In this document: positions 23,400-37,068 of the stretch, in pieces | Position numbering within the stretch: position 1 is the first letter of the stretch | Layout: each line of letters begins with the position of its first letter | Assembly (NCBI GenBank): GCA_030651475.1 | Contig: JAUSEW010000029.1 | Location: 21,777-85,776, forward strand | Origin: Candidatus Levyibacteriota bacterium | GTDB taxonomy: Bacteria > Patescibacteriota > Microgenomatia > Levybacterales > UBA12049 | Direction of reading: 5' to 3' | Length of the DNA: 64,000 nt | Made by a program: the position numbers and the translations under genes | The notes under the pieces: model-generated | What the model was told of the DNA's origin: nothing | The model's database searches: none | Seen by the model: only the letters and a program-made list of their open reading frames with translations

Positions 23400-23861
23400 A
23401 TGGAGGATAAAAAAATAATAGAACCAAAAGTTGATAAAAAGGATTATATCTTCGCAGTTGGCAGACGTAAGGAGGCCATAGCCGGAGTGCGTTTTCATAA
23501 AAAAGATAAAGTTTCGTGGGGGGATATAACGGTAAACAAAGGAGAAATATTTGTTAATAAAATGCCGGCAGAAAAATATTTCGGAAGCCAAGCTGTAAAT
23601 GTATATAGCGAGCCATTGCGTCTTGCTAATATGGAGAATAAGTTTGCCATAACGGTTATTGTCAGAGGCGGAGGAAAATTTGGACAATTGGATGCTATGG
23701 TTTTGGGTATAGCAAGAGCGTTAAATCAATTAGACAGAGATAAATTTCGTCCGGCTCTTAAAAAACAGGGATTTCTTACTCGGGATTCCAGAACTAGGGA
23801 ACGTAGGAAAGTGGGAATGGGCGGTAAAGCAAGAAGAAGAAAACAAAGTCCTAAGAGGTAA
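23400..23861 (+). CDS. rpsI: 30S ribosomal protein S9
   Basis: 153 aa; C-terminal GGKARRRKQSPKR. Confidence 0.93.
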   Translation: MEDKKIIEPKVDKKDYIFAVGRRKEAIAGVRFHKKDKVSWGDITVNKGEIFVNKMPAEKYFGSQAVNVYSEPLRLANMENKFAITVIVRGGGKFGQLDAMVLGIARALNQLDRDKFRPALKKQGFLTRDSRTRERRKVGMGGKARRRKQSPKR

Positions 23862-24456
23862 ACTTTTTATAAAGTTTTATAAATTCTTCATTTTTTGACA
23901 AGAGTTTAGTTTCTTGCTCGCACCAGACAGAATAAGTACCGGGTTTTTGTTCGATTTCCCTTAAGAACTCCTGCCATTTTATCCATCTTACCCTCTCTAC
24001 CTCGCCGCGATTTAATAAAGGTTTTTTATCGCTAAACGCAATAAGGACAGGACAGATCTCATTTTCAACAATACCATTCATTTCTGCTTTGTAAGAAAAG
24101 TCGGGTAAAATTTCAAATAACTTATCTATCTTAATCCCCAATTCAAAATTTAATCTTCTCTTAGCAGCATCTATATTTGATTCATTAAGCATTGGGTGTC
24201 CGCAGACGGAATTTGACCAAACCAGAGGCCACGTCTTTTTCTTACCGCTTCGTTGCTGAAGAAGTAATTGTCCCTTAGAATTGAAAAGAAAAACGGAAAA
24301 TGCCCTATGTAAAGGAGTATTACTGTTATGTGTTGCTAATTTCGGAGCAATCCCCAATACGTTATTATTTTTATCAACTAAAACTACATAATCTTCTACT
24401 TTTTCCATAATGCAAACAAAAAACTTATCAGTAAGTAGATTAACAAAATCTGCCAA
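23851..24456 (-). CDS. idi: isopentenyl-diphosphate delta-isomerase type 1 (Nudix)
   Basis: HRAFSVFLFNSKGQLLLQQRSGKKKTWPLVWSNSVCGHP matches IDI-1 signature; true start possibly internal Met (MEKVEDYVV). Confidence 0.85.
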   Translation of the reverse strand: MADFVNLLTDKFFVCIMEKVEDYVVLVDKNNNVLGIAPKLATHNSNTPLHRAFSVFLFNSKGQLLLQQRSGKKKTWPLVWSNSVCGHPMLNESNIDAAKRRLNFELGIKIDKLFEILPDFSYKAEMNGIVENEICPVLIAFSDKKPLLNRGEVERVRWIKWQEFLREIEQKPGTYSVWCEQETKLLSKNEEFIKLYKKFTS

Positions 24457-24728
24457 AGCATAACTGAAATGAAAACAGTGCTAAGAAATAGAGAGATAGC
24501 TTCTCTTTTTAATCCATACGTATTTATCAGAACAGACCCAATTCTCCCAAACATAAATAAAATAATAAGCCCAACGAAGGGAGAGAAAATTACAGGTAAA
24601 AGGACAGGACGTCTTGTAACTTGCCTTATGGTTATAAATGGGTGAAATATAAGACCAATAAGAGTTTTTGTAAAAATGTACGCGCTAAAAATTAAAAATG
24701 TACTTTTTTTCATAGTCCTTCGATACAT
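24396..24728 (-). CDS. small integral membrane protein
   Basis: 110 aa, three hydrophobic segments. Confidence 0.35.
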   Translation of the reverse strand: MYRRTMKKSTFLIFSAYIFTKTLIGLIFHPFITIRQVTRRPVLLPVIFSPFVGLIILFMFGRIGSVLINTYGLKREAISLFLSTVFISVMLWQILLIYLLISFLFALWKK

Positions 24729-24781
24729 TCGATAAACTCAGTATCGCACTGAGCGAAGTCGAATGTGCGACAAGCTCAGGA

Positions 24782-25009
24782 TTATAACTTTCCAAAAATT
24801 TTCAAAATAAATTCACTGTAATTTTTCCCCAAAATGAAATGCAGGATTAAAGTAAAAATAATAGAAAGGGGAATTAAGATTCGCCAAGGATGATTTCCTA
24901 GCCAAGAACTTACGGAAAGAAATACTTTAGGCAGAAACATGCTCCTTAAAATTTTCTCCTGCTCTTGCGCCCTTTCTTCCAAAGTCTTAAGGAATTCGTG
25001 TTCGTTCAT
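24782..25009 (-). CDS. small membrane protein immediately downstream of ECF sigma factor (candidate anti-sigma factor)
   Basis: 75 aa, one TM segment; 4-bp overlap with sigma gene. Confidence 0.35.
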   Translation of the reverse strand: MNEHEFLKTLEERAQEQEKILRSMFLPKVFLSVSSWLGNHPWRILIPLSIIFTLILHFILGKNYSEFILKIFGKL

Positions 25010-25575
25010 GGTTCGACTTCGCTCACCATCTTCGATACTTCTGCACGGTCATAGGCGAGCTTAAAGCTTTGCCGAGCTCTAAAAAGAAGAGATTCGGCAG
25101 CTTTAAATGATAACTTTAATTTTACGGCAAGTTCTTTTACCGGAACTTGATCTTCGTAGTGTAGCTTGAGAACTTTTTGGTAGCTAATTGATAGACTCTG
25201 AAGAGATAATTCAATTCTGTCACGGATTTTATTTTTTTCAAACTGGAACTCCGGTTGATTTATTTCAGCTGCGGCAATTTGCAGAAAAGGCATTTGAGAT
25301 AAAAGTATGGATTTAATTTTCTGTTTGCGATAAAAATCAACGGTTTTATTATGGGCGATTCCATAAAGCCAAGCCAAAACGCTTTCATGCCTTCTTAGCA
25401 AAGATAACGAATCAATTGCTTCCAAGAAAACATCATTTGTTAATTCTTGAGCATCTTCGTGTCTCGCAAGCCTTTTTAAAAAATAGGATAAAATTTTTGG
25501 AGAATAAGATTTATAAAACTCAATTACTGCCTTACTATCTCCAGAAAGAATACGTTTTATGAAAGAAAAAGACAT
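25006..25575 (-). CDS. RNA polymerase sigma-70 family, ECF-type sigma factor
   Basis: 189 aa; region 2 (DAQELTNDVFLEA, VLAWLYGIAHNKTVDFYRK) and region 4 HTH. Confidence 0.75.
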   Translation of the reverse strand: MSFSFIKRILSGDSKAVIEFYKSYSPKILSYFLKRLARHEDAQELTNDVFLEAIDSLSLLRRHESVLAWLYGIAHNKTVDFYRKQKIKSILLSQMPFLQIAAAEINQPEFQFEKNKIRDRIELSLQSLSISYQKVLKLHYEDQVPVKELAVKLKLSFKAAESLLFRARQSFKLAYDRAEVSKMVSEVEP

Positions 25576-25653
25576 AGGGAGATTATATCAGATTTTTGCT
25601 GCGAATGATTTTGGGAAATTTTACGACTAGATAGAAGGAGGTATTGACGTACT

Positions 25654-26808
25654 ATGGATTTTCGTGCTTATGTAAGTGTTGATAAGAGACGTAAGGCAGT
25701 AGAAGATAATTTAAAAGTTAACCTTTCTAATATTGGCAATTATTCCTTTGATTCAAAGCTGGCATCTTCAAGAAATTGCGAGAATATGATTGGAGCAGTT
25801 CAAATTCCATTAGGGATTGCTGGGCCTTTAAAAATAAAAAGCGATTTCTCTGAAGATGAAGTTTTTTTACCGTTAGCTACAACAGAAGGGGCTTTAGTTG
25901 CATCTGTAAATAGGGGATGTAAGGTAATTACTCTAAGCGGAGGAGTAACTGTTAATAGCCAAAGGATAGGAATAACAAGAGCTCCGGTTTTTGTGGTGAA
26001 TAATCAAAAAGAAGGTAAAAAGTTCGTAGAGTGGGTAAATTCTAGCTTTAAACTTCTTAAGCAAGTTACGGAATCCACTTCATCTCATCTGACCCTTTTA
26101 GATATAAAATCTACCTTCATGGGAAGAAATGTTTATTTAAGATTTAGATTTGATTCACAAGATGCAATGGGCATGAATATGGCAACAATTGCGTGTACCA
26201 AAGCGGCATCTTTTATAGAAAAAGAAACAAAAGCGCGATTAGTGGCGATTTCCGGGAATATGTGTGTTGATAAAAAGCCTAGTTTATTAAATTTTATTGA
26301 AGGAAGAGGGTATTCCGTTTCAGCTGACATATTAATCCCACGAAAAATTGTAGAATCTACGTTAAAGTCTAAAACAGAAAGTATCGTCGAAGTCGCGCAG
26401 CGCAAGCTAATGTACGGGTCTTTACTTTCGGGCAGTGTTGGGGCAAATGCTCACTATGCAAATATTTTATCAGCTATGTTTATAGCGACTGGACAAGACG
26501 CAGCGCATGTGGCAGAATGTTCTGTAGGTATAACAACAGCGGAAGAAATAAAGGGTGATCTCTATGTCTCAATATATCTACCCGATCTCGTGGTAGGAAC
26601 AGTTGGCGGAGGAACATCTCTTGAAACCCAAAAAGAAGCATTATCAATTATGGGAATTAGTGGTGGCAATAATGGAAAAAATGCAAGAAAATTAGCAGAA
26701 ATTATTGGAGGAGCTGTGCTCGCAGGAGAGATTTCCTTATTAGCATCTTTAGCGGATAATTCTTTAGCATCAGCTCATCGGAAATTAGGGAGGGGAGAAA
26801 AAATATAA
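25654..26808 (+). CDS. hmgA: 3-hydroxy-3-methylglutaryl-CoA reductase (class-I-like catalytic domain)
   Basis: 384 aa; ENMIG, DAMGMNM, GTVGGGT signatures. Confidence 0.9.
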   Translation: MDFRAYVSVDKRRKAVEDNLKVNLSNIGNYSFDSKLASSRNCENMIGAVQIPLGIAGPLKIKSDFSEDEVFLPLATTEGALVASVNRGCKVITLSGGVTVNSQRIGITRAPVFVVNNQKEGKKFVEWVNSSFKLLKQVTESTSSHLTLLDIKSTFMGRNVYLRFRFDSQDAMGMNMATIACTKAASFIEKETKARLVAISGNMCVDKKPSLLNFIEGRGYSVSADILIPRKIVESTLKSKTESIVEVAQRKLMYGSLLSGSVGANAHYANILSAMFIATGQDAAHVAECSVGITTAEEIKGDLYVSIYLPDLVVGTVGGGTSLETQKEALSIMGISGGNNGKNARKLAEIIGGAVLAGEISLLASLADNSLASAHRKLGRGEKI

Positions 26809-26812
26809 AATT

Positions 26813-27850
26813 ATGACAGGAATTGTTGGATACGGAACCTATATTCCGAAATATCGTCTTAGACTTTCTGAAATTGCCAAGGTGTGGGGAAAGGATACGG
26901 CCGAAATAGAAAATGGACTGCGTATTTCTGAAAAAGCTGTTCCTGGTTTTGATGAAGATGCCGTAACTATGGGAGTGGAAGCATCAAAAAAAGCCATTGC
27001 TATGGCAGGTATTAATCCTTCTTCTCTGCAAAGCGTATATTTTGGTTCAGAAAGTCATCCTTACGCTGTTAATCCTTCTTCAACAACACTTGGAGAATAT
27101 TTGGGTATAGGAAATAATTATTTTGCGGCAGATTTGGAGTTTGCCTGCAAAGCCGCTACAGCCGGCATGCAGATAACAGTGGGATTAATAGATAGCAAAA
27201 ATATAAAATATGGTTTGGTTGTGGGAAGTGACACTGCTCAAGGTAAACCTCACGATGCGTTAGAATATACAGCAGCGAGTGCCGCATGCGCGTACATTTT
27301 GGGGAATAAGGAAACAGAAATTATTGCAAAAATTCTGGAAATGTCATCCTTCTCATCCGACACTCCTGATTTCTGGAGAAGGGATGGAGCCAAATATCCA
27401 TCCCATTTTGGAAGATTTACTGGCGAACCGGCGTATTTTACTCACATAATTCAAGAGGGGAAAAATTTACTTGCAAAAAGCAAACTTAAGCCTGAAGATT
27501 TTGACTACTGTGTTTTTCATATGCCTAACGGTAAATTTCCAAGAGTTGTTGCTAAAAAACTTGGATTTACCTCCGGGCAACTAGCACAATCTCTTATAGT
27601 TGATAAAATTGGCAATCCGTATTCAGCATCTGCATTGATGGGATTAGCAAGCGTCCTAGATATTGCAAAACCAAAACAAAAAATATTCTTTGTTTCTTAC
27701 GGATCGGGTGCAGGATCAGATGGTTTCATATTTGAAACTACGAGTAGAATTTTACAAAAACAAAAAAAGATAATTACAGTCTCAAAGCAAATGGAAGATA
27801 AGATTTATATTTCCTATCCAACTTATTTAAGACAAACACACGTCATATGA
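26813..27850 (+). CDS. hydroxymethylglutaryl-CoA synthase (archaeal / short type)
   Basis: 345 aa; thiolase-fold HMGCS pattern, N-terminal GIVGYGTYIPKYRL. Confidence 0.85.
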   Translation: MTGIVGYGTYIPKYRLRLSEIAKVWGKDTAEIENGLRISEKAVPGFDEDAVTMGVEASKKAIAMAGINPSSLQSVYFGSESHPYAVNPSSTTLGEYLGIGNNYFAADLEFACKAATAGMQITVGLIDSKNIKYGLVVGSDTAQGKPHDALEYTAASAACAYILGNKETEIIAKILEMSSFSSDTPDFWRRDGAKYPSHFGRFTGEPAYFTHIIQEGKNLLAKSKLKPEDFDYCVFHMPNGKFPRVVAKKLGFTSGQLAQSLIVDKIGNPYSASALMGLASVLDIAKPKQKIFFVSYGSGAGSDGFIFETTSRILQKQKKIITVSKQMEDKIYISYPTYLRQTHVI

Positions 27851-28995
27851 AAATAAATATATTGGGAACTCATGCAACGAAATTTGGAGAGTTATGGAAT
27901 ATATCTCCGCGTGCATTAGCAAGGGAGGCAATGGAAAATGCATTAAATGCATCCGGCTTGAAAGCATCTGATATAGACGCTTTATATGTAGGGAATATGT
28001 TGTCCGGAATTTTGGGTAATCAAGCGAATTTAGGATCCTTGCTCGTTGAAGAGCTGGGTGTTCAAGTTCCCGCTTTTAGAATAGAAGGCGCTTGCGCTTC
28101 AGGAGGTTTAGCTTTGCATAACGCGATTAACAGTCTTAAAGCGGGGCAATATAAAACAGTTTTGGTTTTAGGTATAGAAAAAATGACAGATCATAGTCAA
28201 GATGAGATTACAAATGCTTTAATGTCTGCGGGATCGGACGAAGAGCGTTTGGCTGGTGCAACATTTCCCGGAGTATATGCGCTAATGGCCCAAGCCTATA
28301 TGCAGCAATATAAAGTAAGCGAAGAAGATTTGGCTTGCGTTTCCGTAAAAAACCATTATCATGGAACGCTAAATCCCAAAGCTCAATTCCAATTTCCCAT
28401 AACCATAGCCGATGTTATGAGAAGCGCAAAGATTGCTGATCCGCTCAAACTTCTAGATTGTTCTCCGATTTCAGATGGGGCTGCGGCAGTTGTTATTACC
28501 AGCGAAAATATTCTTAAAAAAAATAAGAAACCCATACAGATTATTGCAAGCGAAGTAGCCACAGACACGCTTAGTCTTCATGACAGAAAATCTTTTACCA
28601 GTTTGAGTGCCGTTGTTGAAGCATCTACGAAAGCGTATGGAAAAGCAGGATTAAAACCTTCGGATATTGATGTTGCTGAAATTCATGATTGTTTTTCAAT
28701 TTCAGAGGCGATTGCAACAGAAGATTTAGGTTTTTCTAAAAAGGGCGAAGGTGCAAGGGATATTGCCAAAGGCAAGAGAACGCTTTTTAAAGGGGATATT
28801 ATTTGTAATCCATCGGGAGGACTAAAAGCCTGCGGTCATCCTGTTGGAGCAACAGGCATAAAGCAGATAGTCGAGCTTACGGAACAGCTTAGAGGAGAAG
28901 CTGGGAAACGTCAGGTTGAAAAAGCAAGGATTGGTTTGGCTCACAATGTCGGGGGAAGCGGTACGATAGCGGCAATTCATATTTTACAAAAATAG
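27847..28995 (+). CDS. acetyl-CoA C-acetyltransferase (archaeal-type thiolase)
   Basis: 382 aa; thiolase pattern with active-site Cys (EGACASGG), HDCFSI, NPSGG. Confidence 0.85.
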   Translation: MKINILGTHATKFGELWNISPRALAREAMENALNASGLKASDIDALYVGNMLSGILGNQANLGSLLVEELGVQVPAFRIEGACASGGLALHNAINSLKAGQYKTVLVLGIEKMTDHSQDEITNALMSAGSDEERLAGATFPGVYALMAQAYMQQYKVSEEDLACVSVKNHYHGTLNPKAQFQFPITIADVMRSAKIADPLKLLDCSPISDGAAAVVITSENILKKNKKPIQIIASEVATDTLSLHDRKSFTSLSAVVEASTKAYGKAGLKPSDIDVAEIHDCFSISEAIATEDLGFSKKGEGARDIAKGKRTLFKGDIICNPSGGLKACGHPVGATGIKQIVELTEQLRGEAGKRQVEKARIGLAHNVGGSGTIAAIHILQK

Positions 28996-29000
28996 ATATT

Positions 29001-29303
29001 ATGATAACATCACCGGTAAAACTTTGGAGAAGGCAAAAAAATACATCAGCTCTTATAGGGAAAAAAGGGAAAATTTTGCAGTGGACAATTATTCGGGTTC
29101 CGGCTAAATCTTTTATTGATCAAGCGCCGTACCCTGTTGTAATTGTGAAAATGCAAAATGGAGAAAATATGATTGGGCAATTAGTTGACTGGCAGGAAAA
29201 AGATTTGATAGTAGGGAAAGACGTTATTGCTGTTTTGCGAAGATTGAGAACGGAAGGGAAAGAAGACGTTATCTACTACAACATTAAATTCAAGCCTCTA
29301 TGA
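29001..29303 (+). CDS. DUF35-family OB-fold protein (thiolase/HMGCS partner), lacking zinc-ribbon
   Basis: 100 aa; OB-fold pattern; no cysteines; position right after thiolase as in archaea. Confidence 0.6.
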   Translation: MITSPVKLWRRQKNTSALIGKKGKILQWTIIRVPAKSFIDQAPYPVVIVKMQNGENMIGQLVDWQEKDLIVGKDVIAVLRRLRTEGKEDVIYYNIKFKPL

Positions 29304-30367
29304 AAAAAATTCAAGTTTCTGCCCCGGGTAAGTTACATTTATTGGGCGAACACGTGGTAGTACACGGAAAACCAGCTATTATTGCAACGGTAAATAAACG
29401 CTGTTTTGTAGAAATTACTCCCCGAAAAGATAGGAAAATAGAAATTATTTCTGAAAATTTGAAAGCAAGTAAGATAGTTACGGAAAAAGAAATTATTGCA
29501 AAAACTAAAGAAGCGCAAACAAAATGGGAAACTTATATAAAAACTAATGAGATATCTCTTCTTAAGTCTATAGCTTCAGATCCCTTAGACTTTCCGATTA
29601 TTGTTATTGGTGAGACTTTAAAATATCTTAACAAAACTTTACCATTTGGTTTTACTCTATCAATAAAATCAGATATTCCAATTGGTTCCGGGATGGGATC
29701 TTCTGCGGCACTTAGTGTTTCTATAGCTGGTGCCATGTATTTATTGTTTAATAAAAATTTAGATAAAGAAGTTATAAATGAAATTGCCTATCTTGCAGAA
29801 CAAAAGAAACACGGCCTTCCGTCCGGAGGAGACAATGTTGCTAGTTGTTTTGGAGGAATGGTTTGGTATCGTAAAGAAACACCAGACTTAAAAATTATCA
29901 AACCAATTCCTTTTTCCTTCCCCCGAAAATTGGCAAAGAATTTTGTCGCCATTCATACAGGTATTCCAATTGAATCAACAGGCGAAATGGTAAGTATCGT
30001 ACGGGGACTATATCAAACAAAAAAAGATTTTGTTGAAAATATTTTATCAAGCCAGGAAAAACTAACACGAGAGCTTCTATCTGCAATAAAGGATGGCGAC
30101 GACACTCTAATGATACGTATCATTAGAGCGGGAGAGAAAAACCTTGAAGCGTTAGGGGTTGTAGGAAAAAAGGCACAAGCTATAATTAGGGAAATAGAAA
30201 AGTTAGGAGGAGCGGCAAAAATATCTGGAGCAGGAGGTATTAAGAATGGGTCGGGAATGCTTCTTGCTTACCATAAAACACCAGTAGCTCTTGATGAAGC
30301 TTGTTTGCAATTTAAACTTACGAATAGTAAAATAGCGCTTGGAGACGAGGGCTTAAGACAGGAGTAA
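29300..30367 (+). CDS. mvk: GHMP kinase, mevalonate kinase-like
   Basis: 355 aa; APGKLHLLGEHVVV N-terminus, PIGSGMGSSAA motif 2; contains 24-bp palindrome copy 3. Confidence 0.75.
   Translation: MKKIQVSAPGKLHLLGEHVVVHGKPAIIATVNKRCFVEITPRKDRKIEIISENLKASKIVTEKEIIAKTKEAQTKWETYIKTNEISLLKSIASDPLDFPIIVIGETLKYLNKTLPFGFTLSIKSDIPIGSGMGSSAALSVSIAGAMYLLFNKNLDKEVINEIAYLAEQKKHGLPSGGDNVASCFGGMVWYRKETPDLKIIKPIPFSFPRKLAKNFVAIHTGIPIESTGEMVSIVRGLYQTKKDFVENILSSQEKLTRELLSAIKDGDDTLMIRIIRAGEKNLEALGVVGKKAQAIIREIEKLGGAAKISGAGGIKNGSGMLLAYHKTPVALDEACLQFKLTNSKIALGDEGLRQE
30105..30128. repeat. 24-bp perfect palindrome CTCTAATGATACGTATCATTAGAG inside mvk coding sequence, copy 3 of 3
   Basis: read directly; 25 nt (30104-30128) identical to 1196-1220. 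Confidence 0.95.
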
Positions 30368-30371
30368 AATT

Positions 30372-31226
30372 ATGGTACCCATAAACTATGGAGGAAGAAT
30401 TGAAAGTAGAGGTCCTGAAACCTATAGGAGTCAGTCCTTATTAGACACTATTTTTCAAGCAACTGGTTTAGAAAATTTTCAAGGAAGTGCAGTTGTTATC
30501 GATTTAATGTCGGGTCCTGGAGGAATAGCGCTTAATCTTCAGAAAAAAGCCTCCAGACATTCTTATGCTGTTCTAGATTATGATCAGGAACAATTAGCCA
30601 AAATAGGGGAGCACGAGCCCGTAAATAAGATATTGGCTGATGTAAGGAATGTATCTTCTGTTGTTAAAGGAGAATCTGTAGATATCGCAACTGCTCGTTA
30701 TGGGATTAAGGATATACCTCAAGGGCAACAGCTTCAAGCGCTCAAAGGTATTAATGAGATATTGAGACCAGGAGGAGTTTTTGTGCTTACAGATATGATT
30801 TCCTTGGAAGGTGAAGGATTGCAGAGGTGGCTTAACATACAACATAGTCAAAAGCAGCAGCTTAGCGGAAGAGAAATTGAAAAAGAGGGAGAGTGTTATA
30901 TCCCGACAGAAAAAGAGTGGCTAGCGATGTTAAAAGAAGTGGGTTTTGAAGCGGAAGTTTTTGGTTATTATACAAGTCCTATTTCTACTGGGGATTGGCT
31001 TACGGGAAATCAATTTGGTAATCCAAAATCACCGGAAGCGGCCAGGAAAAAAGCTATTATGGACGAGATAATAATGAACGCTCCAGAAGGTGTGAAAAAA
31101 GCGTTTAATGTGCGACAAGGAGTGAATGGTATGGAAATTGATTATCCAGTTGTTATAATAAGAGCAGTTAAGAAAGTAGCAGAGTCTGGTTTGCCTACTG
31201 CTGGTGATTTATATGCCGCAAGCTAA
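30372..31226 (+). CDS. class I SAM-dependent methyltransferase
   Basis: 284 aa; motif I VIDLMSGPGGIA, motif post-I ILRPGGVFVL. Confidence 0.7.
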   Translation: MVPINYGGRIESRGPETYRSQSLLDTIFQATGLENFQGSAVVIDLMSGPGGIALNLQKKASRHSYAVLDYDQEQLAKIGEHEPVNKILADVRNVSSVVKGESVDIATARYGIKDIPQGQQLQALKGINEILRPGGVFVLTDMISLEGEGLQRWLNIQHSQKQQLSGREIEKEGECYIPTEKEWLAMLKEVGFEAEVFGYYTSPISTGDWLTGNQFGNPKSPEAARKKAIMDEIIMNAPEGVKKAFNVRQGVNGMEIDYPVVIIRAVKKVAESGLPTAGDLYAAS

Positions 31227-32190
31227 AAAGATTACTGTTTCGGCGCCGGGGAAATTAATGCTTTTAGGTGAGCATGCTGTTGTCTATGATCATCCCTGTT
31301 TGGTAACTGCTGTTGACCAAAGAATGCGGGCAACTGTTGAAACTTTAGATTCTTTAGAATTCCAATTGGAAGCAGAAGACGTAAAGGTTACCGGTTATAA
31401 AAAGCCTTTAAGCGAAGTTGGTATTGGAGATATCCCAAAGGGCGCAAAATTTGTAGAAATTGCTCTAAAAAATATTAATGAAAAATATCCTCTTAAAACA
31501 GGATTAAAAATAACAACTACATCGGAATTCTCTTCCCAATTCGGATTTGGATCTTCTTCCGCATCAACAGTCTGTACGATAAAAGCGGTTTCTGAAATTC
31601 TGGGTTTGAATTTATCTGAAAAAGCAATTTTTGATCTTGCGTTTAAAACTGTTTTGGATATTCAGGGAAAAGGATCGGGTTTTGATGTGGCAGCTGCGGT
31701 TTATGGCGGAACTCTGTATTTCGTAACCGGCGGAAAAGTAATTGAGCCTTTAGATATTAAATCATTGCCGTTAATTGTTGGATATAGCGGAGTAAAAGGA
31801 GACACAGTAACGTTGATGAACAAAGTAAAAGAGACTTTTGCCGATAAACAAGGTCGTCTTAATCAAATTTATAATAGTATTGAAGCCTTGGTTGATCAAG
31901 CAAAAATGGTACTTCTTAAAAGCGATTGGAAAACATTTGGAGACCTAATGAATCAGAATCAGAAATATTTAAGCGAATTAGGAATTAGTATTGAAAAACT
32001 TGATAATATGATTAAAGGCGCACTTGATGCAGGCGCTTATGGCGCAAAGCTTTCCGGCGCAGGAGGAGGGGATTGTATGATTGCTATTGCGACAGAAGAA
32101 AAAAAACAAGCAGTTGAGCAAGGCATCAATGCAGTTGGCGGAGAAGTTATCAATGTTGGCACCAACGCAGAAGGCGCAAGAGTGGAATAA
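31204..32190 (+). CDS. GHMP kinase (mevalonate / phosphomevalonate kinase; assignment ambiguous)
   Basis: 328 aa; APGKLMLLGEHAVVY, GFGSSSAS, KLSGAGGGDCMIA motifs; 23-nt overlap with upstream methyltransferase gene. Confidence 0.7.
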   Translation: MIYMPQAKKITVSAPGKLMLLGEHAVVYDHPCLVTAVDQRMRATVETLDSLEFQLEAEDVKVTGYKKPLSEVGIGDIPKGAKFVEIALKNINEKYPLKTGLKITTTSEFSSQFGFGSSSASTVCTIKAVSEILGLNLSEKAIFDLAFKTVLDIQGKGSGFDVAAAVYGGTLYFVTGGKVIEPLDIKSLPLIVGYSGVKGDTVTLMNKVKETFADKQGRLNQIYNSIEALVDQAKMVLLKSDWKTFGDLMNQNQKYLSELGISIEKLDNMIKGALDAGAYGAKLSGAGGGDCMIAIATEEKKQAVEQGINAVGGEVINVGTNAEGARVE

Positions 32191-32194
32191 AATT

Positions 32195-32971
32195 ATGGGA
32201 CATGAAGCATCATTAGTGCCAGATATTTTGCCTCCAGGTAGAAGAATTGCTCTGATAGATATAGATGGTACATTGACTGAGGGTCTTACCATCTCTTCGT
32301 TTGCTGAATACTTAGACAATAACGATTCTTTTAATTCATCTTCGTGGGATCATATGCAGGAAGATTTTTCTCGTTATAGCGCCAGCGATCATGGACATGC
32401 TGCTTATGAGCAATTTGCCGTAGATTTAGTATTGCATTATGCTGATGGATTAAGAGACTACAGAGTAAGCGATGTCGAAGCTATGGCTGGCAAGTTTTTT
32501 GTTTCTGTGCAAAGAAATGAGGTTCCTGAATACAGAGTGTATCCATTTTCTCCTCAGCTAGTTCATCTTATGAATAAAATAGGAACAACAATAGCAGTTT
32601 CCGGTTCTCCAGCTGAGTCACTTGCTCCGTTAAAACGCATTCTTAATTTAGGAGATTTAAGAGCTACTGCTATTGGACAAAAGAATGGAATCTATACAGG
32701 AAGAGTAGATATTAATTTGGCATTAGACTCTGAAAAGAAAAAGGTAGTTGGGGAATATATAGCTGAAGATACAGATAGCGCACGCTCTTTTGCTTTTGGA
32801 GATACGATGCATGATTTGCCCATGCTGGAAGCTGTGGGAAATCCTTTTGTGGTTGGAGATAATTCGCATTTACTAGCTGTTGCAAGAAGAAGGGGATGGT
32901 CTATAATTAATTCTGACAATGCTATTGATCAAGTAGCGCAGAGAATAAACACTTTATTTAAGAATACTTAA
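32195..32971 (+). CDS. HAD-superfamily hydrolase, subfamily IB-like
   Basis: motif I IALIDIDGTLTE, motif IV GDTMHDLPML; ATG 32195 chosen because ORF-track start 32081 overlaps upstream gene. Confidence 0.65.
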   Translation: MGHEASLVPDILPPGRRIALIDIDGTLTEGLTISSFAEYLDNNDSFNSSSWDHMQEDFSRYSASDHGHAAYEQFAVDLVLHYADGLRDYRVSDVEAMAGKFFVSVQRNEVPEYRVYPFSPQLVHLMNKIGTTIAVSGSPAESLAPLKRILNLGDLRATAIGQKNGIYTGRVDINLALDSEKKKVVGEYIAEDTDSARSFAFGDTMHDLPMLEAVGNPFVVGDNSHLLAVARRRGWSIINSDNAIDQVAQRINTLFKNT

Positions 32972-33948
32972 TGAAAGCAACTGCAGTAGCCCCGTCAAAT
33001 ATAGCATTCGTCAAATATTGGGGTAAAAAAGACGAAAAGCTTCGACTTCCTGAAAACGGCAGTATCTCCATGAATTTAAATAATCTTCAGACTACAACAA
33101 CTGTTGAGTTTAATAAAGATTTTAGAGAAGACTTAATTATCATTAACGATCAGAAAGAGGAAAATGAAGGAAGCAGAGCTATAAAGCATTTAGATAGAAT
33201 TAGAATTCTTGCAAAAATAAATTACAAAGCAAAAGTAGTAACTAAAAATAATTTTCCTACAGGTACCGGACTTTCTTCATCTGCATCAGGTTTTGCAGCG
33301 TTAACTTTAGCCGGCGCAAAAGCAGCTGGATTAAATCTGTCGGAAAAAGAATTGTCAATTCTTGCAAGACAAGGATCTGGTTCTGCTTGCCGTTCTATTC
33401 CAGGTGGATTCGTAGAATGGTTAGATGGGGATACAAGCGATACATCTTATGGCGTGTCGTTATATCCTAAAAATTATTGGGACATTGTTGATGTGGTTGC
33501 TGTTGTTAGTAAAAACAAAAAAGAAGTTAGCACGACTGAAGGACAAAAATTGGCAAAATCAAGTCCGTTTTTTCCGATTCGTTTAGCAAGAATAAAAGAA
33601 AAAATTAGATTAATAAAACAATATTTGAAGGAAAAAGATTTTAAAAATTTCGGAGAATTGTTGGAAGCGGAAGCATTGGAACTTCATGCAATTATGTTAA
33701 CCTCAACACCTTCGCTTATATATTGGTTGCCGGGAACTTTGAAAGTTATGCATGCTGTTAAAAGATGGAGAGCTGAAGGATTACAAGTTTATTTTACTGT
33801 TAATACAGGGCAGGATATTCATCTGATTTGTCAAAAAAAAGACGTTGAAAAAGTTGTTAAAAAAGCAGAAGAGATATTAGATGTTCAAAAAACAATTGTC
33901 AATTATCCTAGCAAAGGAGCGCATTTAATTTCAGCACATCTTTTTTAA
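32971..33948 (+). CDS. mvaD: diphosphomevalonate decarboxylase
   Basis: 325 aa; SNIAFVKYWGKKDE, GLSSSASGFAAL. Confidence 0.88.
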   Translation: MKATAVAPSNIAFVKYWGKKDEKLRLPENGSISMNLNNLQTTTTVEFNKDFREDLIIINDQKEENEGSRAIKHLDRIRILAKINYKAKVVTKNNFPTGTGLSSSASGFAALTLAGAKAAGLNLSEKELSILARQGSGSACRSIPGGFVEWLDGDTSDTSYGVSLYPKNYWDIVDVVAVVSKNKKEVSTTEGQKLAKSSPFFPIRLARIKEKIRLIKQYLKEKDFKNFGELLEAEALELHAIMLTSTPSLIYWLPGTLKVMHAVKRWRAEGLQVYFTVNTGQDIHLICQKKDVEKVVKKAEEILDVQKTIVNYPSKGAHLISAHLF

Positions 33949-34838
33949 AAAGTTCTTTTTTCTATAATTTCAACTAAATCTAAAAATTTCTTTTTATATT
34001 TTATTTCCATTTCCATATTTGCAATAATTATTTTAGCGCTCTTTATATTATCTTTAACTATCTCTTTTTGAGATGCTAAGTCTTTATGTTTTCGGTTGGT
34101 ATCAAATATATCGTCTTGAGATTGAAAAGCTATGCCCAATCCCAATCCTAATTCTTTGCAAAACCTTTCTGCGTGCGAAGTTAATTCTCCTGCCAAGGAC
34201 GCACCAATCAATAAGGGATAAATAAAAGAGTATCTTGCTGTTTTTAGATAGTTTATCTTAGAATTTAAAGTCGGTATTATTTTTTGGCGTGATTGAGAAT
34301 CAATATCGAGCATTTGACCCACTATTGTTCCATCAACCATATCGAAAAAAAACTTTCTTACTCTTTGAATTGCAGATTGATCAAAGTCCAAATTTAAATT
34401 TATAATTTCCGTAGCCCAATTGAAGAAAAGATCTCCTAAAAGAATTGCCTGTGAGTTACCGAAATGTTCATAATTTTTATTTCCCCTTTCTTTTTTTAAT
34501 TTCTCACCAATATATATATGAGAGGCATATATTCCATGACGCATGTTTCCTTTATCCATAATATCATCATGGATAAGTGCAAATATATGAAAGATCTCGA
34601 GTGCAATTAATAATTTCAGAACTTTTTCTGTTTCCTTTCCTCCAAAAGCCTGATATGTTAGAAATGCGATAAATGGGCGTATGCGTTTTCCGCCTGATAA
34701 AGTAATTTTTTTAGCATAGTTAATATAGTCAATAATTGAAGAATCTTTGGTATAATTAATAATGCTCTTCATTTTTTTATCAAGGTAGTCCTGGAGATAG
34801 GGGTCAAATTTTTGTTTAAATACTTCTAAGTCGTTCAT
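33945..34838 (-). CDS. short-chain trans-polyprenyl diphosphate synthase (FPP/GGPP synthase family)
   Basis: 297 aa; first DDxxD (LIHDDIMD) and second (FQSQDDIFD) Asp-rich motifs. Confidence 0.85.
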   Translation of the reverse strand: MNDLEVFKQKFDPYLQDYLDKKMKSIINYTKDSSIIDYINYAKKITLSGGKRIRPFIAFLTYQAFGGKETEKVLKLLIALEIFHIFALIHDDIMDKGNMRHGIYASHIYIGEKLKKERGNKNYEHFGNSQAILLGDLFFNWATEIINLNLDFDQSAIQRVRKFFFDMVDGTIVGQMLDIDSQSRQKIIPTLNSKINYLKTARYSFIYPLLIGASLAGELTSHAERFCKELGLGLGIAFQSQDDIFDTNRKHKDLASQKEIVKDNIKSAKIIIANMEMEIKYKKKFLDLVEIIEKRTF

Positions 34839-34842
34839 TGTT

Positions 34843-35625
34843 TTATTTTAATCTTGCTCCAAATCTTCTTTCTCTTTTAGAATAATCAATTAAAGCTCTT
34901 ACGAAGTCCTTCATATCGGCGTCCGGTAAAAGCTTTGAGATAGAGTAAAATTCTGAATTCTGGTTAAGCCAGCCAATGTCGGAAGTTCTTTGTTCGCCGC
35001 TAGTTCTTATTATTAGATCTGCAGGATGAATTTCTCCTTGACCATCTCTTAACCTTTTTAACATATCATGAGTAATTTTGGTATTTTTTGGAAGTTTTTG
35101 TATTTCCTGCATGATTCTTAATTCCTGATCTTCTCCTCCAAAATCAATTGCGATGCAAAGAATTTTTCCTTTGTTGTTTTTTGTCATATCTTCAACTTTT
35201 CGCATAGTATCTTTTAAGTTCAAGGGGATTCTATCTTTTCTGCCAATATGGATAAAGCGGCTTTTATTTTTTAAAAGGTCTGGCGTAATTTCTTTTATTG
35301 CTCCTTCAAAAAGTTTCATTAAATCCTCAACTTCTTTTTTTGACCTTTTCCAGTTATCGGCAGCAAATCCCCAAATAGTAATAGTATTTATAGGTAATTC
35401 CTGTAAATTACTTAAGACATTTTTTAGAACCCTATATCCTTGTTGATGTCCAATAATAGGAATGCTGTTTAGCCTTCTTGCCCATCGTCCATTACCATCA
35501 GGAATAATTAATAGATGATTAGGAAATTTTCCTTCAGGGATACTCTTTAAATCCGGAAATCTTTCGAAAATACTCTTTTTCATAAAGCAGATTGTAATTG
35601 TATCCTGAAAAATAGCAAAATGCAA
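34843..35625 (-). CDS. uppS: undecaprenyl-diphosphate synthase (cis-prenyltransferase)
   Basis: 260 aa; HLLIIPDGNGRWA, TIWGFAADNWKRS. Confidence 0.88.
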   Translation of the reverse strand: MHFAIFQDTITICFMKKSIFERFPDLKSIPEGKFPNHLLIIPDGNGRWARRLNSIPIIGHQQGYRVLKNVLSNLQELPINTITIWGFAADNWKRSKKEVEDLMKLFEGAIKEITPDLLKNKSRFIHIGRKDRIPLNLKDTMRKVEDMTKNNKGKILCIAIDFGGEDQELRIMQEIQKLPKNTKITHDMLKRLRDGQGEIHPADLIIRTSGEQRTSDIGWLNQNSEFYSISKLLPDADMKDFVRALIDYSKRERRFGARLK

Positions 35626-36929: not shown

Positions 36930-37000
36930 GTCGGGGCGCTGAGAATCGAACTCAGACCACATGACCCCCAGCCACGCATTCTACCACTAAACTACGCCCC
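36930..37000 (-). tRNA. tRNA-Pro (anticodon GGG)
   Basis: folded by hand: 7-bp acceptor stem starting C1-G72, T-arm CTGAG-TTCGATT-CTCAG, anticodon loop CTGGGGG with U33 and G37; no encoded CCA. Confidence 0.8.
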
Positions 37001-37068
37001 GTTTTGCAAAGCAGAATCGAATTTGATCTATTGCATTATAACAAAATATTGCTACAATAAACATAATT

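Follow-up and report, generated by a model that had tools for sequence, protein, structure and literature searches.

The mevalonate gene cluster of a Levybacteria genome encodes an archaeal-type HMG-CoA synthase (HMGCS) and thiolase together with a DUF35 protein that is reduced to 100 amino acids and has no zinc ribbon. The trio is a variant, conserved and under selection, of an archaeal-type system that is already known, and its function is most likely the archaeal-style coupled thiolase/HMGCS reaction. The explanation as a whole, namely that these are Levybacteria mevalonate enzymes which carry out this coupled reaction with a minimal DUF35 partner, is given a probability of about 0.65. The novelty of the zinc-free minimal DUF35 is modest: the main elements have already been published, and the picture of the pathway does not change. 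The mevalonate pathway has its thermodynamic bottleneck at the thiolase step, which archaea overcome with the DUF35-scaffolded complex.

The genes are located in a stretch of 64,000 nucleotides (the window). According to matches with Pfam, TIGR and NF family models, a complete mevalonate-to-polyprenyl route is encoded between positions 23851 and 35625:

23851-24456, minus strand: type 1 isopentenyl-diphosphate isomerase (Nudix); NF002995, 213.2 bits versus 127
25654-26808, plus strand: HMG-CoA reductase (HMGR), class I (NADPH); PF00368, 412 bits; TIGR00533, 447.2 versus a cut-off of 441.8
26813-27850, plus strand: archaeal-type HMG-CoA synthase, C-terminally short, 345 aa; NF003274, TIGR00748, 6ESQ chain I
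27847-28995, plus strand: archaeal/SCP-x-type acetoacetyl-CoA thiolase, 382 aa; NF004720, 6ESQ chain A
29001-29303, plus strand: minimal DUF35, 100 aa, with an N-terminal helix (residues 5-16) and an OB barrel (22-99); PF01796
29300-30367, plus strand: GHMP kinase 1, mevalonate-kinase-like; TIGR00549, 182.7 bits versus 163
30372-31226, plus strand: SAM-dependent methyltransferase inserted in the operon; PF13649 and PF01209 matches
31204-32190, plus strand: GHMP kinase 2, mevalonate kinase-like; TIGR00549, 207.5 bits versus 163
32081-32971, plus strand: HAD-IB family hydrolase; PF12710, 45.8 bits; TIGR01488, 47.3 versus 45
32971-33948, plus strand: diphosphomevalonate decarboxylase; TIGR01240, 270.7 bits versus 171
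33945-34838, minus strand: trans-polyprenyl diphosphate synthase; PF00348, 130.4 bits
34843-35625, minus strand: cis-prenyltransferase (undecaprenyl diphosphate synthase family); PF01255, 177.1 bits

The gene order HMG-CoA synthase, thiolase, DUF35 had been proposed in a preliminary description of this DNA, and it was confirmed by three plus-strand reading frames at exactly these coordinates, with family models scoring above their cut-offs. HMGCS scored 495.6 bits with NF003274 (cut-off 244) and 438.5 bits with the archaeal model TIGR00748 HMG_CoA_syn_Arc (cut-off 353), versus only 116.6 bits with the bacterial model TIGR01835, whose cut-off is 360. The thiolase gave 483.3 bits with NF004720 (cut-off 420); its score with NF053570, the equivalog of the Methanothermococcus thermolithotrophicus type, was 443 bits and thus below the cut-off of 600. 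For all three proteins the best match among solved structures was the corresponding chain of the M. thermolithotrophicus thiolase/HMGCS/DUF35 complex (6ESQ/6ET9), with identities of 52% over 338 aa for HMGCS, 45% for the thiolase and 33% for DUF35. HMGCS aligned end to end with 6ESQ chain I (382 bits), and the thiolase matched 6ESQ chain A with 316.5 bits. The catalytic tetrad of HMGCS was located at E80, C112, H236 and N268, the counterpart of the tetrad named E82/C114/H238/N270 in PMC12960953. The CxS, HDxF and GHx motifs of the thiolase were found as C83-A-S85, H280-D-C-F283 and G330-H331. Tetrad and motifs were invariant in all 57 sequences compared. The short C-terminus of archaeal HMGCS (about 345-350 aa in total) leaves the DUF35 platform exposed (PMC11522927), and with its 345 aa the Levybacteria enzyme falls into this class.

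The 100-aa product had been described as a DUF35-like OB-fold protein without cysteines and without the usual zinc ribbon. In the HMM search that had been proposed as a check it matched PF01796 OB_ChsH2_C, the DUF35 OB domain, with 37.7 bits (gathering score 27.1), so that the result which would have spoken against the assignment, absence of a DUF35/OB-fold match, did not occur. The rest of the description also held: the protein contains neither Cys nor His, and the Pfam search gave no match to the zinc-ribbon family PF12172. Of the two-domain Pfam architecture of DUF35 proteins (PF12172 zf-ChsH2 plus PF01796 OB_ChsH2_C) PF01796 alone is present, as it is in 120 of 120 close homologues among the matches listed. 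In the DUF35 alignment both CxxC knuckles are replaced by a gap of about 31-34 residues, which corresponds to the complete rubredoxin-like zinc ribbon, and the N-terminal helix with its invariant W9-R10 is joined straight to the OB barrel. The AF2 prediction was a confident compact fold. In sequence and fold the protein is nearest to the scaffold of the ternary complex (6ESQ_E), not to the DUF35s of binary complexes, and its W-R, F-R-R and Y-G-x-K-F motifs are also found in the archaeal scaffold. Residues W9, R10, R80 and Y93 were invariant across 64 short DUF35s, down to about 31% identity. The dN/dS values ranged from 0.05 to 0.27; the short DUF35 is under purifying selection. An identical protein (100%) is encoded in a Candidatus Levybacteria MAG, and short forms made up 77 of the best 150 DUF35 clusters at 50% identity.

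A ribbon encoded by a hidden upstream exon or by a frameshifted segment was considered and rejected: the thiolase gene ends at 28995, 5 nt upstream of DUF35, and there is therefore no space for a ribbon-coding segment. The ATG at 29001 is the first start after the in-frame stop. No second DUF35-like ORF, full-length or other, was found in the window. Insertions that could compensate for the lost ribbon were sought in the thiolase and in HMGCS and none was detected; the lengths of the two enzymes are 382 and 345 aa in short-form lineages, versus 380-382 and 343-346 aa in long-form lineages.

The genes of HMGR, HMGCS, thiolase, DUF35 and kinase 1 lie on one strand and are joined by ATGA overlaps or by gaps of at most 5 nt. 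The HMGR stop is 4 nt ahead of the HMGCS start, HMGCS and thiolase share a 4-nt ATGA overlap, and the start of kinase 1 overlaps the DUF35 stop in the same way (ATGA), which is also the commonest DUF35-kinase junction in related loci. Judged by these junctions, the DUF35 ORF is translationally coupled on both sides. GHMP kinase 1 may be the phosphomevalonate kinase. Homologues of the inserted methyltransferase occupy the equivalent position in only four of the 79 loci compared (L007, L012, L016 and L018), and no homologue of the HAD-IB hydrolase was found in these 79 loci. As listed, the hydrolase ORF starts with TTG at 32081 and overlaps kinase 2; its translation suggests an alternative Met codon near 32198, just past the kinase 2 stop.

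With the HMGCS protein as query at least 79 related loci were found, a sample biased to Levy-, Gottesman- and Woesebacteria. Among the loci listed, HMGR, HMGCS, thiolase, short DUF35 and kinases followed each other in all 52 related Microgenomates loci for which the DNA was long enough. Because the same order recurs in every locus that extends far enough, the arrangement is not due to chance. In these 52 loci DUF35 directly follows the thiolase, is 97-108 aa long and has no paired CxxC, down to 40% identity and in genomes of about 1 Mb. The preliminary description had treated the trio as a single occurrence in "a bacterium"; it is instead the standard arrangement of Microgenomates (CPR). The abstract of Vogeli et al. 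2018 reportedly mentions "some bacterial" genomes. Archaeal-type AACT/HMGS of Microgenomates have been described (PMC6107057), and the occurrence of the thiolase/HMGCS/DUF35 architecture in bacteria has been proposed (PMC11522927).

The short DUF35 is probably a derived form, since bacterial contigs with the same synteny retain a longer one. Contig L085 has the rpoA-L17-L13-S9-sigma-HMGR-HMGCS-thiolase order seen here, but its DUF35 is 135 aa long and carries the zinc ribbon. L080 and L083 resemble L085, and the long CPR DUF35s contain both PF12172 and PF01796. These contigs and L082 appear to be bacterial from the genes that they carry (rpoA, sigma-70 and ribosomal proteins of bacterial type). 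In an NJ tree without support values the long forms of L085, L080 and L083 branch below the large short-form clade; L082, a lineage with the short form, is placed outside the long forms, and its deletion has similar-looking boundaries. In the proposed scenario a deletion in frame would have taken out about 31-34 residues and with them the rubredoxin-like ribbon. The parts that would have been kept, N-terminal helix and OB barrel, hold the residues shared with the archaeal scaffold.

In the coupled reaction the thiolase would convert two acetyl-CoA, through a Cys83 acyl-enzyme, to acetoacetyl-CoA, a thermodynamically uphill step, and HMGCS (Glu80/Cys112/His236/Asn268) would at once combine acetoacetyl-CoA with a third acetyl-CoA to form HMG-CoA, which is downhill. 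Thiolase and HMGCS dimers would be held together by the 100-aa DUF35, as they are in the archaeal 6ESQ/6ET9 complex; a CoA arm would swing between both active sites, and acetoacetyl-CoA would not be released. HMGR would consume the HMG-CoA made by the trio, and together with the two GHMP kinases, the decarboxylase, IDI-1, the trans-prenyl synthase and the UPPS-family enzyme would lead to polyprenyl diphosphates. A physical ternary complex, a shared CoA site and channelling are suggested by homology, synteny and selection. In the archaeal complex a positively charged cleft between zinc ribbon and OB domain contacts the thiolase (PMC6996347); loss of the ribbon removes part of a known interface. 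Every DUF35 structurally characterised by 2019 bound zinc (PMC6996347). We consider the odds to be slightly in favour of Microgenomates running the channelling complex with a metal-free scaffold of 100 residues, made up of N-terminal helix and OB barrel only. If this is true, assembly does not require the zinc ribbon, or else the complex has been rebuilt in a way that accommodates its absence.

The same genes could be read differently if the short DUF35 served the SCP-x-type thiolase only, as an obligate partner required for its folding, solubility or activity, and the bridge to HMGCS had been lost with the ribbon, so that the two reactions would not be physically channelled. The KT/DUF35 pairs of Sulfolobus and Ltp2-ChsH2 would be comparable cases. 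There are KT/DUF35 pairs in which co-expression with DUF35 is needed for a soluble and active thiolase (bioRxiv 10.1101/2024.07.05.601840); in the Ltp2-ChsH2, BbsAB and Sal-Shy structures, which were among the fold matches of our protein, DUF35 is paired only with thiolase-like subunits; and the lost ribbon belongs to an interface of the archaeal complex (PMC6996347). However, it is the thiolase that the ribbon-OB cleft touches there, and ribbon loss therefore endangers the contact with the thiolase no less than that with HMGCS. Moreover, HMGCS still has the short C-terminus of the archaeal enzymes, with the DUF35 docking platform exposed, the nearest relative of the DUF35 in sequence and fold is 6ESQ_E and not a binary-complex protein, and the three genes are adjacent in 52 of 52 loci. 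We regard a partnership with the thiolase alone as unlikely. Loss of a whole domain with all its metal ligands could also mean that the 100-aa ORF is a decaying, functionless remnant in a streamlined genome. This reading is contradicted by the selection and conservation data, i.e. the low dN/dS, the constant length in 52 of 52 loci and the four residues invariant in 64 sequences; the confident compact fold and the translational coupling on both sides point the same way, and the chance that it is correct is very small.

A further possibility is a repurposed acyltransferase of the PhlABC/MucABC type, which would catalyse Friedel-Crafts C-acylation in secondary metabolism and would not form HMG-CoA. 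The next-best sequence and fold matches of the trio are PhlA, PhlB/MucC and related chains, and the bacterial HMGS/ACAT/DUF35 complexes characterised so far are of the Friedel-Crafts type (PMC12960953). The motif test effectively refutes this possibility: the E-C-H-N tetrad and HDxF, which PhlA/MucA and PhlC/MucB no longer have, are complete here and do not vary. HMGCS scores 382 bits with the archaeal enzyme and 175-180 bits with PhlA, the neighbours of the trio are HMGR, kinases, decarboxylase, IDI and prenyl synthases, and no polyketide or tetramate genes were found adjacent to it; we give such an acyltransferase hardly any credence. Finally, since all three proteins are nearest to archaeal families, the segment might be archaeal DNA, wrongly assembled or recently transferred, in place of a native bacterial operon. 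The flanks are bacterial (rpoA, L17, L13, S9, an ECF sigma-70 factor, RecA/RecX and RNase Y), the GC content is even across the window, and linkage to the ribosomal protein operon in the same gene order recurs in independent assemblies, among them megabase-scale scaffolds and two records whose titles call them chromosomes. In the gene tree (NJ) the bacterial sequences form a deep clade and are not a recent graft from archaea, consistent with PMC6107057. Ancient shared ancestry with the archaeal genes is the published view. Mis-assembly and recent transfer are refuted by these observations, and their probability is negligible.

The preferred reading, a coupled thiolase/HMGCS reaction with a minimal DUF35, is of interest for several reasons. 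A large bacterial radiation retains the three-gene module under strong selection, with a scaffold that has no zinc ribbon. This extends the system firmly into bacteria with its primary-metabolic chemistry intact, unlike PhlABC/MucABC. The conserved positions mark the indispensable parts of DUF35, namely the helix bearing W-R and the OB barrel bearing R80 and Y93. The short protein would offer a natural minimal metal-free scaffold for experiments and for isoprenoid pathway engineering, and the long-form (L085-type) and short-form CPR operons, identical in synteny, would form a natural before/after pair on the role of the ribbon.

Compared with the archaeal 6ESQ/6ET9 complex, the Levybacteria system has the short HMGCS, the E-C-H-N tetrad, the CxS/HDxF/GHx motifs, the helix plus PF01796 and the organisation in one operon; the four-Cys zinc ribbon (PF12172) is missing, as it is in 52 of 52 orthologues. 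In the archaeal complex (2018, cited in PMC12960953, PMC6996347 and PMC11522927) the DUF35 has about 130 aa with a four-Cys rubredoxin-like ribbon, whereas here the host is a CPR bacterium and the DUF35 has 100 aa and no ribbon. Unlike the archaeal system, the Levybacteria operon is joined to HMGR and to a lower pathway of the bacterial/eukaryote type (kinases, diphosphomevalonate decarboxylase, IDI-1). The window is an example of the CPR mevalonate cluster of Hoshino & Gaucher 2018 (PMC6107057), with all parts present in 23851-35625; DUF35 is not mentioned in that paper, and a zinc-less DUF35 between thiolase and kinases is not described there. With the S. acidocaldarius KT/DUF35 fatty-acid synthase core, Ltp2-ChsH2, BbsAB and Sal-Shy the trio shares a DUF35 OB-fold subunit associated with an SCP-x-type thiolase-fold enzyme. 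In HMGCS-DUF35 fusions of other bacteria (a Streptomyces albus example in PMC11522927, and loci L058-L079) an HMGCS-like domain and DUF35 are likewise encoded together beside a thiolase. In L058-L079, however, DUF35 forms the C-terminus and keeps its CxxC motifs, and E, C and H of the tetrad are missing in 16 of 16 aligned fusions (Asn is kept in a few); their sequences indicate a different subfamily with a different function. In PhlABC (5M3K) and MucABC (9VBO/9VBT) the HMGCS tetrad and the thiolase HDxF have been lost, the reaction is Friedel-Crafts acylation and the zinc ribbon is kept. The intact tetrad and HDxF place the Levybacteria trio outside this group, and its pattern is the opposite one: the catalytic motifs are retained and the ribbon is lost.

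The three closely packed ORFs between 26813 and 29303 were assigned by family models as follows.

26813-27850, + strand: archaeal-type HMG-CoA synthase (HMGCS), 345 aa, first ORF
27847-28995, + strand: archaeal/SCP-x-type thiolase, 382 aa, second ORF
29001-29303, + strand: DUF35 OB protein (PF01796), 100 aa, third ORF

HMGCS scored 495.6 bits with NF003274 (cut-off 244), 438.5 bits with TIGR00748 'HMG_CoA_syn_Arc' (cut-off 353) and only 116.6 bits with the bacterial model TIGR01835 (cut-off 360). The thiolase reached 483.3 bits with NF004720 (cut-off 420); with the M. thermolithotrophicus-type thiolase equivalog its 443 bits fell under the cut-off of 600. The order and coordinates given in the preliminary description were thus correct. 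The HMM search of 29001-29303, proposed there as the check, with absence of a DUF35/OB match as the refuting outcome, returned PF01796 with 37.7 bits (Pfam gathering score 27.1), and the protein, described as a cysteine-free OB-fold DUF35-like polypeptide, contains neither Cys nor His. The claimed lack of a zinc ribbon also held: the Pfam search gave no match to the zinc-ribbon family PF12172 in the 100-aa protein. With the thiolase gene ending 5 nt before its ATG, the ORF has no room to be longer, and no second DUF35-like ORF was found within the window. An 'OB-fold domain-containing protein' encoded by a Candidatus Levybacteria MAG matches the 100-aa protein at 100% identity.

Ribbon-less short forms of DUF35 were aligned with long forms of 130-137 aa. 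The N-terminal 'SPVKxWRxQK' helix of the former aligned with 'xPxxWRxxxxRY' of the latter; the gap of ~31-34 residues that follows spans both CxxC knuckles, and the alignment resumes at the first OB-barrel strand, in agreement with a weak first HMMER stretch. Since helix and barrel align around this gap, the ribbon was cleanly excised and the other two elements were kept. There was no compensating insertion, because thiolase and HMGCS have equal lengths in long- and short-form lineages. All DUF35 structures solved by the time of a 2019 review bind zinc at an equivalent position, and in 6ET9, a structure of the M. thermolithotrophicus thiolase/HMGCS/DUF35 complex, a positively charged cleft between ribbon and OB domain touches the thiolase (PMC6996347); the lost segment therefore belongs to an interface already known. 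In the short form, residues 1-35 are still strongly basic (net +8). Three long-form homologues (P0234, P0240 and P0248, 133-138 aa) retain the length of the ribbon segment with just 0-2 Cys; judged by sequence, some lineages seem to have lost zinc binding without deleting the ribbon.

HMMER was run in full over 1.84 billion cluster representatives and yielded 374 relatives. Among the best 150 of these, 77 clusters (50% identity) were short forms of ~100 aa with the W-R helix and no CxxC, and only 15 were canonical long forms with two CxxC, appearing from E ~1e-13. An HMGCS scan with one genome per species gave, among the matches listed, 56 loci of the candidate phyla radiation (CPR), from Levy-, Gottesman- and Woesebacteria and unclassified Microgenomates. 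All 52 loci extending far enough had the order HMGR-HMGCS-thiolase-DUF35-GHMP kinases-decarboxylase, with a DUF35 of 97-108 aa lacking paired CxxC. Residues W9, R10, R80 and Y93 were invariant in 64 short forms, at identities down to 31%, and long forms and the archaeal scaffold conserve their equivalents too. The possibility that the 100-aa DUF35 is a decaying gene is contradicted by its conservation in 52/52 loci and by dN/dS values of 0.05-0.27 (against 11 orthologues with computable dS); purifying selection acts on this gene, in genomes of ~1 Mb, and it is no remnant. The operon genes in the window overlap by ATGA or lie ≤5 nt apart, and the 4-nt DUF35/kinase overlap is the commonest DUF35-kinase junction among related loci. 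In many TPA MAGs that bear the title 'uncultured Gammaproteobacteria bacterium' (L004, L010, L013-L018, L020-L023 and others), the locus was 58-81% identical to the Levybacteria operon with identical gene order; these organism labels look like placeholders or errors. An origin of the trio segment as foreign DNA is likewise contradicted, by even GC content throughout the window and by bacterial flanks, with rpoA, L17, L13 and S9 upstream, RecA, RecX and RNase Y downstream, and an ECF sigma factor also among the flanking genes. The host is a CPR (Microgenomates) bacterium and the DNA is not archaeal. GC skew was positive in nearly all 2-kb bins of positions 1-64000 (maximum +0.30) and its cumulative curve climbs almost monotonically; genes are mostly on the + strand.

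Neighbouring genes complete the mevalonate-to-polyprenyl route with class I HMGR, a pair of GHMP kinases, diphosphomevalonate decarboxylase, IDI-1, a trans-prenyl synthase and a cis-prenyltransferase of the UPPS family. Further features are listed here.

24396-24728 and 24782-25009, - strand: two small ORFs with predicted membrane products, in the IDI-HMGR interval and divergent from the operon
25006-25575, - strand: ECF-type sigma-70 factor, in the IDI-HMGR interval and divergent from the operon
29300-30367: GHMP kinase, TIGR00549 (mevalonate kinase) 182.7 bits, cut-off 163
30372-31226: SAM-dependent methyltransferase between the two kinases in the operon, weak UbiE/COQ5 similarity
31204-32190: GHMP kinase, TIGR00549 207.5 bits, cut-off 163
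32081-32971: HAD-IB family hydrolase between kinase 2 and decarboxylase, possible alternative start at an internal Met codon near 32198
36930-37001, - strand: single tRNA-Pro(GGG)

Both kinases scored under the phosphomevalonate-kinase cut-offs; presumably one of them acts as phosphomevalonate kinase. The pair is kept in nearly all related loci. A methyltransferase homologue occupies the equivalent position only in L007, L012, L016 and L018, and no HAD-IB homologue was found at the equivalent place in the 79 loci fetched by HMGCS search (blastp E ≤ 1e-5); a phosphatase is an odd companion for a pathway whose intermediates are phosphorylated. The contig of P0154 (JGI 3300075153), another short-form lineage, carries DUF35, one GHMP kinase, the decarboxylase and an amino-acid-kinase-family gene, possibly an isopentenyl phosphate kinase, with HD, prenyl synthase and UPPS genes after these. 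CPR lineages seem to differ in the lower pathway and to share a fixed upper trio.

Some bacterial contigs hold a zinc-ribbon DUF35 in the equivalent operon. Locus L085 reads adk-map-infA-S13-S11-S4-rpoA-L17-L13-S9-sigma(-)-HMGR-HMGCS-thiolase-DUF35-kinase-kinase-decarboxylase-Nudix-UPPS, the same synteny as in the window (L080 and L083 are similar), with a sigma-70 gene at the equivalent place and a DUF35 of 135 aa that has a weak zf-ChsH2 match. In a neighbour-joining tree built on joined HMGCS and thiolase sequences, with the archaeal pair as root and L083 and L085 included as long-form lineages, these two branch below the large short-form clade, and the short-form lineage L082 branches still lower. 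This synteny and branching suggest that the short form was probably derived within CPR, by one or two origins; ribbon loss in L082 may have been independent. The gene order in the divergent lineage L082 (contig Ga0452210_000127, 3725-7312) is HMGR-HMGCS-thiolase-DUF35; the HMGCS call is just 288 aa long, the DUF35 has 103 aa, and neither kinases nor a decarboxylase come next.

For each trio protein the best solved relative is the corresponding chain of the archaeal complex (6ESQ/6ET9): HMGCS at 382 bits and 52% identity, thiolase at 316.5 bits and 45% identity, DUF35 at E 5.3e-11. The window HMGCS is as short as its archaeal counterparts, a length at which the docking platform for DUF35 stays exposed (PMC11522927). 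The HMGCS tetrad E80, C112, H236 and N268 and the thiolase motifs C83-x-S85, H280-D-x-F283 and G330-H331 are present, and invariant in 57/57 sequences compared; their integrity contradicts a trio repurposed as an acyltransferase. We infer with a probability of roughly 0.65 that the trio assembles as in archaea and couples the thiolase and HMGCS reactions through DUF35. DUF35 would bridge thiolase dimers and HMGCS dimers, and exergonic HMG-CoA synthesis would pull endergonic acetoacetyl-CoA synthesis forward via a shared CoA site; the scaffold would here be reduced to helix plus OB barrel. The analysis establishes protein identities, fold, motifs, the ribbon deletion, conservation, selection and operon structure, from which assembly and channelling are inferred. 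The main rival reading, rather unlikely, is that the short DUF35 is only the obligate partner of the thiolase, as in KT/DUF35 pairs, with no bridge to HMGCS.

Archaeal-type AACT and HMGS, in one cluster with the remaining pathway genes and cis-IPPS, were described for most Microgenomates in 2018 (PMC6107057), a paper that never mentions DUF35. Also published are the archaeal complex and the suggestion that some bacteria may have it in the form of HMGCS-DUF35 fusions (PMC11522927); the trio itself is therefore of a known kind. By title and abstract, none of the five papers naming both 'DUF35' and 'mevalonate' in the searched library concerns CPR bacteria, and the conserved, metal-free, ribbon-less Microgenomates DUF35 appears undescribed. 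In loci L058-L079 (Deltaproteobacteria, Rhizomicrobium, Bacillota, Dehalococcoidia and others, all non-CPR), HMGCS-like proteins 465-500 aa long have a DUF35 at the C-terminus with its CxxC motifs kept, and usually an SCP-x-type thiolase adjoins. Tetrad residues E, C and H are replaced in 16/16 of these fusions aligned, Asn being kept in a few; their sequences suggest that the HMGCS part is a catalytically dead scaffold of another, uncharacterised thiolase system. The canonical DUF35 has two domains, zinc ribbon and OB, and the Microgenomates protein fails one of these defining features, which is unsurprising to a specialist, yet gives a useful handle on the role of the ribbon. In bacteria, two HMGS/ACAT/DUF35 complexes have been characterised, PhlABC and MucABC; they were repurposed for Friedel-Crafts acylation and have lost the HMGCS tetrad and the thiolase motifs (PMC12960953), whereas the trio in the window retains both.
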